Sequence record: NC_054903.1
DNA length: 64,000 nucleotides
Source: Enterobacteria phage GiZh
Strand: one strand, 5' to 3'
A model generated the notes under the pieces. It searched no databases and was not told the DNA's origin. It worked only from the letters and a program-made list of their open reading frames with translations. The position numbers were made by a program, and so were the translations under genes. Positions 5,061 through 55,590 of the stretch are shown one piece after another (the first letter of the stretch is position 1; the number at the start of each line of letters is the position of its first letter).

Positions 5061-5318
5061 CTATTTTAAAACTTCTGCGTAATCACATGTTACAAACTGT
5101 TTCTCTAGCTTAACGATTTTACGAAAATGCCTTTTACACTGACGAATCTGCCTCTTCGTAGGACGTACAACAAACTTAATAAATTCCACTCGACCAAATG
5201 GAGGACTTTCTTCTGCTGGAATATCTAACACCAATTCCCATGTATCCGCAATAAGCGCTTTGAATTGCGTATTTTTCCTGACGTTATACGGAGTAGGTTT
5301 AAATAAAACAATATGCAT
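5061..5318 (-). CDS. hypothetical protein (61.4 position)
   Basis: 85-aa ORF, ATG verified, 2-nt gap to dmd. Confidence 0.5.
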   Translation of the reverse strand: MHIVLFKPTPYNVRKNTQFKALIADTWELVLDIPAEESPPFGRVEFIKFVVRPTKRQIRQCKRHFRKIVKLEKQFVTCDYAEVLK

Positions 5319-54998: not shown

Positions 54999-55000
54999 CT

Positions 55001-55027
55001 AAAAAGCCCCAACCTTTCGGTCGGGGC
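55001..55027 (-). terminator. intrinsic terminator at the end of the tRNA/stable-RNA transcript
   Basis: GCCCCGACC-gaaa-GGUUGGGGC plus UUUUU on minus strand. Confidence 0.65.
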
Positions 55028-55030
55028 TAA

Positions 55031-55344
55031 GCCTTGCGGCAACCTTGTCGGGGTTCCACCTGCTAAGGCAAGTGTTTGTACGAAACGCCGGGATTCGAAC
55101 CCGGTTATTAAGTAGTTGACGCTACTCAATATTTTTAAAAGGCCATATCTCGACCATATCCGAACGTTCCGTCAAAAACGCTACTCGGCTTACGGCAAAG
55201 ATATTTCCTCGAATCGATAATTCGGTGCGCCGTTTCTGCTGTGATGTAAGGGGGCATTAACCGATCGTAAAGATTTGTTAATGCCAGTCCTTACCCAGGG
55301 AACATCAGTCCGACGACTTACCGGTAGCGACCCGGTTTCTTGTT
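55031..55344 (-). ncRNA. candidate small stable RNA region (T4 rnaC/rnaD-like) with tRNA-like 3' domain
   Basis: no credible ORF on either strand; minus-strand T-arm-like CCGGGTTCGAATCCCGG at 55088-55103 followed by acceptor-like strand; a complete cloverleaf could not be closed. Confidence 0.35.
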
Positions 55345-55420
55345 TGGTCGAGGCAGTAGGGATCGAACCTACGACCTAGGACTTAGAAGGTCCTTGCTCT
55401 TCCTTCTGAGCTATGCCTCG
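55345..55420 (-). tRNA. tRNA-Arg (anticodon UCU)
   Basis: cloverleaf folded by hand: acceptor CGAGGCA/TGCCTCG, anticodon loop CTTCTAA, T-arm GGTTCGATCC, 3' ACCA. Confidence 0.85.
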
Positions 55421-55503: not shown

Positions 55504-55590
55504 TGGTGGGGAGTGATGGAGTCGAACCACCCGAGTCGCAATGACAATGGATTTACAGTCCACACCGCTACCTCTACGGGATAACTCCCC
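55504..55590 (-). tRNA. tRNA-Tyr (anticodon GUA)
   Basis: acceptor GGGGAGT/ACTCCCC, anticodon loop CTGTAAA, long variable arm, T-arm GGTTCGACTCC, 3' ACCA. Confidence 0.85.

Follow-up and report, generated by a model that had tools for sequence, protein, structure and literature searches.

What is encoded between the last tRNA gene of Enterobacteria phage GiZh and the terminator of its tRNA operon? The window analysed (the whole stretch of 64,000 nt, NC_054903.1) is that of a T4-like phage (Tequatrovirus), with ten tRNAs encoded at 56175-55345 of the minus strand (Gln, Leu, Gly, Pro, Ser, Thr, Met(CAU), Tyr, Asn and Arg; ARAGORN and Rfam). A first-pass annotation had found no credible ORF in the region that follows, 55344-55031, and had suggested that it may encode either the species 1 and 2 stable RNAs of T4-type phages or a degenerate tRNA. 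Sequence comparison indicates that the region very probably consists of the orthologues of T4 rnaD (species 2) and rnaC (species 1), non-coding RNAs co-transcribed with the ten tRNAs. As T4 rnaC and rnaD, the feature is already known, and the species 1 and 2 stable RNAs of T4-type phages, which are cut from the end of the tRNA transcript, have been familiar since the 1970s.

The end of the tRNA operon

The upstream boundary of the region is tRNA-Arg, and the order along the minus strand is tRNA-Arg, rnaD, a spacer of 5-6 nt, rnaC, a trailer of 48 nt and the terminator:

55345-55420, minus strand: tRNA-Arg(UCU), last tRNA of the array, CCA encoded (ARAGORN; Rfam tRNA model, 68.1 bits)
about 55343-55223, minus strand: very probable rnaD (species 2 RNA) orthologue, about 120 nt, aligned to the annotated T4 and RB3 rnaD
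55217-55079, minus strand: very probable rnaC (species 1 RNA) orthologue, 139 nt by the T4 annotation
55031-55078, minus strand: 3' trailer, 48 nt, with a 7-bp hairpin, CACUUGC-CUUA-GCAGGUG, at 55074-55057 (folding)
55000-55030, minus strand: intrinsic terminator of the tRNA/rnaD/rnaC unit (hairpin 55028-55005), with a 10-bp stem, a GAAA loop and a U5 run

Because tRNA-Arg ends at 55345 and a terminator on the same strand lies at 55028-55005, the region falls inside the tRNA transcription unit, as had been proposed. In T4 the primary transcript spans the tRNAs and the species I and II RNAs, with termination after the species I gene (PMC2330249). Trailer and terminator fold together with a z-score of -4.47, the trailer hairpin is almost unchanged in an alignment of T4, RB3 and Kha5h, and the trailer is retained directly 3' of rnaD in Dhakavirus CLBP2, a phage without rnaC.

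The window aligns end to end with T4 and RB3 without rearrangement. The T4 annotation (NC_000866) places rnaD at 71053-71171, directly after tRNA-Arg, and then rnaC at 70908-71046; RB3 also annotates both non-coding RNAs, and the gene order of tRNA-Arg, rnaD, rnaC and terminator is that of T4. It was from these two annotations that the ends of rnaC and rnaD in GiZh were transferred, and as they differ by 1 nt at the 3' end of rnaD, this end is either 55224 (T4) or 55223 (RB3); the 5' end of rnaD lies 2 nt past the CCA of tRNA-Arg. The GiZh rnaC is homologous to the annotated T4 rnaC over its full length, at 99.3% identity across 139/139 nt with one substitution only, and has the equal position (rnaD before it, trailer and terminator after it) and the equal strand relative to the tRNAs. 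Across the family rnaD is far more variable than rnaC, and the GiZh copy is 88.1% identical to the rnaD of NC_000866 and 91.7% identical to that of RB3. It shares with T4 rnaD (119 nt) a core of 45 nt at the 5' side and 22 nt at the 3' side, as well as the start 2 nt past the CCA of tRNA-Arg, but its distal hairpin departs from that of T4 in several substitutions and indels, and these are compensated. The end-to-end alignment in equal order therefore upholds the suggestion of T4-type species 1 and 2 RNAs. In T4 itself, RNAC and RNAD accumulate as discrete late RNAs by Northern blot and RNA-seq (PMC9697503).

A query of 361 nt spanning the region is 100% identical to Escherichia phage JLBYU24 and is covered to at least 80% in 678 phage records, nearly all of them Tequatrovirus and close relatives. 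For rnaC, 679 of the 746 matching records are at least 95% identical, and the RNA is recognisable in at least eight genera. Few of the phage records listed as matches annotate rnaC or rnaD, and in many T4-like genomes, such as JLBYU24 (L003 1722-1883), CDS features for a 'hypothetical protein' overlie rnaC, rnaD and the terminator. That the region encodes small proteins, as these annotations in JLBYU24 and many GenBank records would have it, is exceedingly improbable. Minus-strand ORFs do exist, and CDS features overlap the match in many records, but the only two are of 40 aa (55257-55135, ATG start) and 53 aa (55129-54968, TTG start). The first has an internal stop codon in T4 and a frameshift in one relative (L010); the second, which is the annotated hypothetical protein of JLBYU24, reads on through the terminator and is interrupted by a frameshift or stop in at least nine relatives, including L014, L023 and Dhakavirus-type sequences. 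Substitutions are moreover paired as expected of RNA helices. Since both short ORFs are broken in relatives, the region is non-coding, in agreement with the first-pass annotation.

Several other features of the locus should be noted. The tRNA-Tyr at 55509-55588 (minus strand) reaches 30.2 bits with the Rfam tRNA model, against a threshold of 29, while the other nine tRNAs score 57-74 bits. The array is composed of ten contiguous tRNAs in GiZh, including Pro, Tyr and Asn, whereas T4 has eight tRNAs with segB inserted between tRNA-Ile and tRNA-Arg. JLBYU24, though identical over the region, has a segD-like endonuclease CDS between tRNA-Gly and tRNA-Ser, with no tRNA-Pro annotated there. Homing-endonuclease traffic reshapes the tRNA-array locus. 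Downstream, the operon terminator (55028-55005) has a near-exact second copy at 54473-54450 on the minus strand, and between both copies lie a T4 late-promoter motif, TATAAATA, at 54998-54991 (minus strand) and a minus-strand ORF of 157 aa (54954-54481), which matches phrog_2280 (function unknown) and has no Pfam match; T4 has no gene at this site. The segment 54450-55030 looks like a cassette inserted between duplicated terminators.

A tRNA-shaped rnaC with a long arm and a kissing loop

Covariation shows rnaC to be a tRNA-shaped RNA of four arms, in which a 70-nt arm fills the position of the D-arm and a kissing loop locks the molecule into a compact form. In the numbering used here, RNA position n corresponds to window coordinate 55218 - n:

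55210-55216, minus strand: 5' strand of the acceptor-like stem, CGAUUCG (RNA 2-8), pairing with 55081-55087 (RNA 131-137)
55140-55209, minus strand: long arm (RNA 9-78), an irregular 70-nt hairpin of about 25 bp at the place of the D-arm
55170-55175, minus strand: apical loop of the long arm, UUGACG (RNA 43-48), the exact complement of 55116-55121; kissing partner
55108-55129, minus strand: hairpin 2 (RNA 89-110), 8-bp stem and 6-nt loop CGUCAA (55121-55116), at the place of the anticodon arm; kissing partner
55088-55104, minus strand: T-arm, CCGGG/UUCGAAU/CCCGG (RNA 114-130), continuous with the acceptor 3' strand (sequence)
55076-55087, minus strand: acceptor 3' strand CGUUUCG (55087-81) and U-ACA-A, a CCA-like tail (sequence comparison)

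Homologues of rnaC were gathered from annotated phages, IMG/VR and metagenomes. Over 18 distinct full-length sequences the model has 95% pairing, with 17 compensatory pairs and none of 500 shuffles as good, compared with 36-46% paired in slid controls; the folding z-score of rnaC is -4.56. In the covariation tests of both rnaC and rnaD, 0/500 shuffles did as well on four of five measures, and the count of further pair types was reached by 17, 63 and 131 of 500.

The acceptor-like stem is paired at 74-75% overall. The A4-U135 pair of Tequatrovirus is G-C elsewhere (9:9 in the set of 18 sequences, 8:15 in a set of 23), and the two central U.U mismatches of most clades are U-A and C-G in the Yersinia TG1 clade. 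Helices 2 and 3 of the long arm are 97-100% paired with five compensatory pairs. The core of this arm is constant across genera within the pattern-collected set, in which the constancy of RNA 30-62 exists by construction, because this 33-nt run (one R position excepted) was the pattern by which IMG/VR homologues were collected. Pattern-free searches found a long arm that differs in the TG1 clade and four further genera that carry unrelated sequence outside the tip of the arm.

Hairpin 2 has compensatory changes at 8/8 of its stem pairs. The helix formed between its loop and the apical loop of the long arm is 100% paired in 23 distinct sequences, including the clades with a replaced long arm, and its compensatory changes are UUGAUG/CAUCAA (TG1 clade) and UUGGCG/CGCCAA (Klebsiella Marfa-like phages); as each is limited to one clade, these represent two events, not many. 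The T-stem is likewise 100% paired, with two compensatory pairs. The T-loop is non-canonical (UGCAUGC) in one clade (L008/L018/L019), so that recognition of rnaC by the canonical tRNA enzymes is not universal. At the 3' end, all 23 sequences share U138, C140, A141 and A142 and differ at position 139; the U-NCA-A tail after the acceptor strand has ACA in T4-type sequences, UCA in TG1 and, among the Marfa-like phages, a genuine CCA.

The long arm is replaced, with the apical kissing hairpin alone retained, in Gelderlandvirus CF-SP2, Moonvirus NM4.3, Edwardsiella phage PEi20 and the Klebsiella Marfa-like phages (L029 at about 1125-1272, L030 at about 1102-1252, L036 at about 5139-5291, and L042-L044, L046 and L055). 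These replaced-arm sequences have peptide-like conservation (..FDDAP..) in one reading frame, and NM4.3 has a CDS annotated there.

How much of a tRNA is present in this RNA? The perfect T-arm-like element (CCGGG-UUCGAAU-CCCGG, 55104-55088, minus strand) and the acceptor-like strand that had been recognised on first inspection are both real, the latter being CGUUUCG at 55087-81, which pairs with CGAUUCG at 55216-10. It had also been reported that a full cloverleaf could not be closed, and neither ARAGORN nor the Rfam tRNA model calls a tRNA in the region; there is no ordinary cloverleaf because the partner strand of the acceptor lies 122 nt upstream. In common with a canonical tRNA (RF00005), rnaC stacks an acceptor-like stem of 7 bp coaxially on a T-stem of 5 bp (each of them with compensatory changes), has a 7-nt T-loop (UUCGAAU) and four arms in tRNA order, and at its 3' end carries NCA after one unpaired nucleotide. 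It departs from one in its length of 139 nt, in the 70-nt hairpin that stands instead of the D-arm, in the two U.U mismatches of the acceptor stem, and in an 'anticodon' arm of 8 bp with a 6-nt loop that is paired intramolecularly and is not a 7-nt anticodon loop; rnaC does not score as a cloverleaf above the 29-bit threshold of RF00005. An acceptor/T-arm minihelix joined to a long helix, as in rnaC, is also the design of the tRNA-like domain of tmRNA and of the tRNA-like module of bacterial Y RNA (YrlA). Compared with these domains, rnaC is without a tag reading frame, a conserved G3-U70 or, in most clades, an encoded CCA.

At the gathering score, Rfam 15 identifies the ten tRNAs only in the whole window, and it has no family for rnaC or rnaD; at E<=10 over the region it returns noise only, with a tRNA-Sec-like alignment as the best scorer and no match of RF00005 in 55031-55344. 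ARAGORN called no tmRNA there, and for tmRNA Rfam gives only fragments of 7-10 bits over T-arms. A covariance model (R1), for which the nine source sequences were rnaC homologues from genera other than Tequatrovirus, has its sole match in the 64-kb window at 55220-55074 on the minus strand (163.6 bits, E=2.5e-38). The first-pass annotation had named the lack of a covariance-model hit, alongside that of a stable transcript, as what would refute its suggestion; a scan with Rfam 15 indeed has no match in the region, but the purpose-built model does, and as worded the covariance-model condition is invalid because Rfam 15 is without models for both RNAs.

The suggestion of a degenerate tRNA stands in part, in that rnaC keeps a cloverleaf-like order of arms and an acceptor/T-arm minihelix, but it fails every tRNA detector. 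The stronger form of the idea, in which the region would consist of tRNA pseudogenes in decay, left over from former tRNA genes and under no selection, is exceedingly improbable. It would account for the perfect T-arm and acceptor-like strand, for a weak alignment of 55080-55172 to tRNA-Sec (RF01852; 17 bits, E=1.3, gathering threshold 47 bits), and for a homologue in Enterobacter phage PG7 that ARAGORN and GenBank call 'tRNA-Met'. Against this, rnaC has 17 compensatory pairs and the breadth and level of conservation described above (at least 95% identity in 679/746 records, at least eight genera), and tRNA features are wholly absent from rnaD. The tRNA-Sec-like pairing of RNA 46-54 with 130-138 was rejected; it has no compensatory change, falls below shuffles, and is lost in the clades with a replaced arm (type-2). 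The PG7 'tRNA-Met' (L005 1554-1648) is composed of the 3' 95 nt of the rnaC homologue, and is a false tRNA call because the supposed anticodon arm is not conserved.

The bent hairpin of rnaD and the spread of both RNAs

For rnaD, covariation shows a small 5' hairpin followed by a long bent hairpin whose core (CGUCG/CGGCG, CCCUG) is invariant and whose tip varies freely:

55320-55336, minus strand: P1 hairpin, ACCGG/CCGGU, 5 bp, 7-nt loop GUCGCUA
55225-55317, minus strand: long bent hairpin (RNAalifold and pair counts)
55317-11 / 55232-25, minus strand: P2, GUCGUCG/CGGCG-AC, invariant; closes the long bent hairpin
55304-01 / 55240-37, minus strand: P3, UGUU/AGCA, a short covarying helix
about 55297-55242, minus strand: distal stem-loop, hypervariable

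In addition to P1, P2, P3 and the distal stem-loop, rnaD has a CCC bulge. The consensus of 20 distinct sequences has 94% pairing and 11 compensatory pairs, a result matched by 0/500 shuffles, and the folding z-score is -3.44. In P1, an A-U pair is G-C in RB3-type sequences and a C-G pair is U-A in W70; in P3, a U-A pair is A-U in seven sequences, and the whole helix is rebuilt as UUUAAU/AUUAAA in the short versions of the Karamvirus type. These short versions keep the architecture of conserved core helices and a variable distal hairpin. Among the rnaD sequences as a whole, the tip occurs in at least four unrelated versions with compensated stems.

Several other readings of rnaD were discarded. 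A 'terminator-like' match on the plus strand at 55320-55336 is the P1 hairpin read on the wrong strand. The minimum free energy register of P3 (C36-G108 etc.) was set aside in favour of the RNAalifold register, which explains both the U40/A107 covariation and the Karamvirus-type rebuild. A hammerhead core (CUGAUG...GAAAC) was rejected by eye: its topology is wrong, with the sequence 5' of CUGAUG pairing with that 3' of GAAA, A9 has no counterpart, and Rfam gives no match. A K-turn or sarcin-ricin reading of the internal loop is off consensus, and Karamvirus-type versions do not conserve the loop.

rnaC and rnaD are modules that occur independently of each other. In Karamvirus, Moonvirus and Gelderlandvirus, rnaC lies between tRNA-Trp and tRNA-Gly with no adjacent rnaD, and an rnaD-like RNA occurs elsewhere in the Karamvirus tRNA array; in Tegunavirus rnaC is found just upstream of tRNA-Trp, and in Dhakavirus CLBP2 rnaD is present and rnaC absent. 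A tRNA is directly followed by a shorter rnaD-like RNA with the shared core in Karamvirus (PG7, KaAlpha), in Citrobacter phage Ursula and in a Jiaodavirus, as well as, outside the Straboviridae, in the Vequintavirinae phages W70 and A73. The W70 copy (L031 1497-1592) is a 96-nt RNA with a T4-type core directly after tRNA-Met, and it is found in A73 too. The occurrence of an rnaD-like RNA in a phage of a different family (W70) implies horizontal transfer of the module. With regard to a host origin, neither RNA was matched in 5,426 E. coli genomes, and no pattern match to either was found in GTDB species genomes. One pattern match (L037) was a chance match in coding DNA and was discarded.

Maturation and possible roles

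Structure and knowledge of T4 together suggest a polycistronic precursor that would be cut by the tRNA-processing machinery of the host. The 12-bp acceptor/T-arm minihelix of rnaC with its U-NCA has the shape of a substrate for RNase P, for 3' trimming enzymes and for the CCA-adding enzyme, roles that are proposed because of this shape and of the T4 literature. Under such a scheme rnaC would probably leave the precursor as a tRNA does, the cut 5' of rnaC would also fix the 3' side of rnaD, and the 5' end of rnaD would be produced by 3' maturation of tRNA-Arg. Classical T4 work of the 1970s-80s on RNase P processing and related steps agrees with a tRNA-like excision of rnaC.

An alternative account would treat the region as the purely cis-acting 3' end of a tRNA operon, in which structured spacers guide or protect the processing of the upstream tRNAs and the terminator and the excised pieces are by-products without a role in trans. 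The location at the end of the operon, beside the terminator and a conserved trailer hairpin, is compatible with this account, as are the embedding of both RNAs in tRNA arrays of T4-like phages, where they are bounded by tRNA processing sites, and the reviews that give no known function for the species 1 and 2 RNAs (PMC3014915). It is nevertheless very unlikely. In several genera rnaC separates two tRNAs in the middle of the array, where no additional spacer is required; the unpaired loops are conserved or covary mutually and not with the flanking tRNAs; discrete RNA species accumulate in T4 (PMC9697503); and during adaptation of a T4-like phage to E. coli ECOR34 a convergent SNP in rnaD was selected repeatedly on this one host (PMC12685909).

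Our best guess, held with low confidence, is that rnaC and rnaD may act in trans as stable structured RNAs, and a trans role is favoured over that of a by-product because of the conservation of rnaC, the conserved or covarying loops, the modular spread and the convergent SNP in rnaD. Neither RNA seems to be a translation adaptor or an mRNA, again as a best guess of low confidence. For rnaC, the most parsimonious guess, equally tentative, is a tRNA mimic that would occupy a tRNA-binding factor of host or phage. A more specific version, in which rnaC is a dedicated, mobile tRNA mimic that titrates or misdirects a host tRNA-binding factor and rnaD is a second determinant of host range, is unlikely as a whole. 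Candidate targets of such a mimic would be, for instance, a defence nuclease directed at tRNAs or an enzyme that processes or modifies them, and most enterobacterial T4-like phages would carry the rnaC module in their tRNA arrays; a part for rnaD in host range is considered because of its fast-evolving tip and the reported host-specific adaptive SNP.

The result is in itself an ordinary one, the rediscovery of two genes already annotated in the reference genome of T4, and neither the structural detail, the modular distribution nor the absence from Rfam changes the classification as T4 rnaC and rnaD. In most GenBank records of T4-like phages, both RNAs are unannotated or are covered by spurious 'hypothetical protein' or false 'tRNA-Met' features. 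The covariation-supported models of rnaC, with its kissing loop and NCA/CCA tail, and of the rnaD core supply concrete mutations with which these abundant late RNAs can be tested, and should rnaC prove to be a dedicated tRNA mimic with rnaD as a determinant of host range, this would be the first function for RNAs that have been without one for 50 years.
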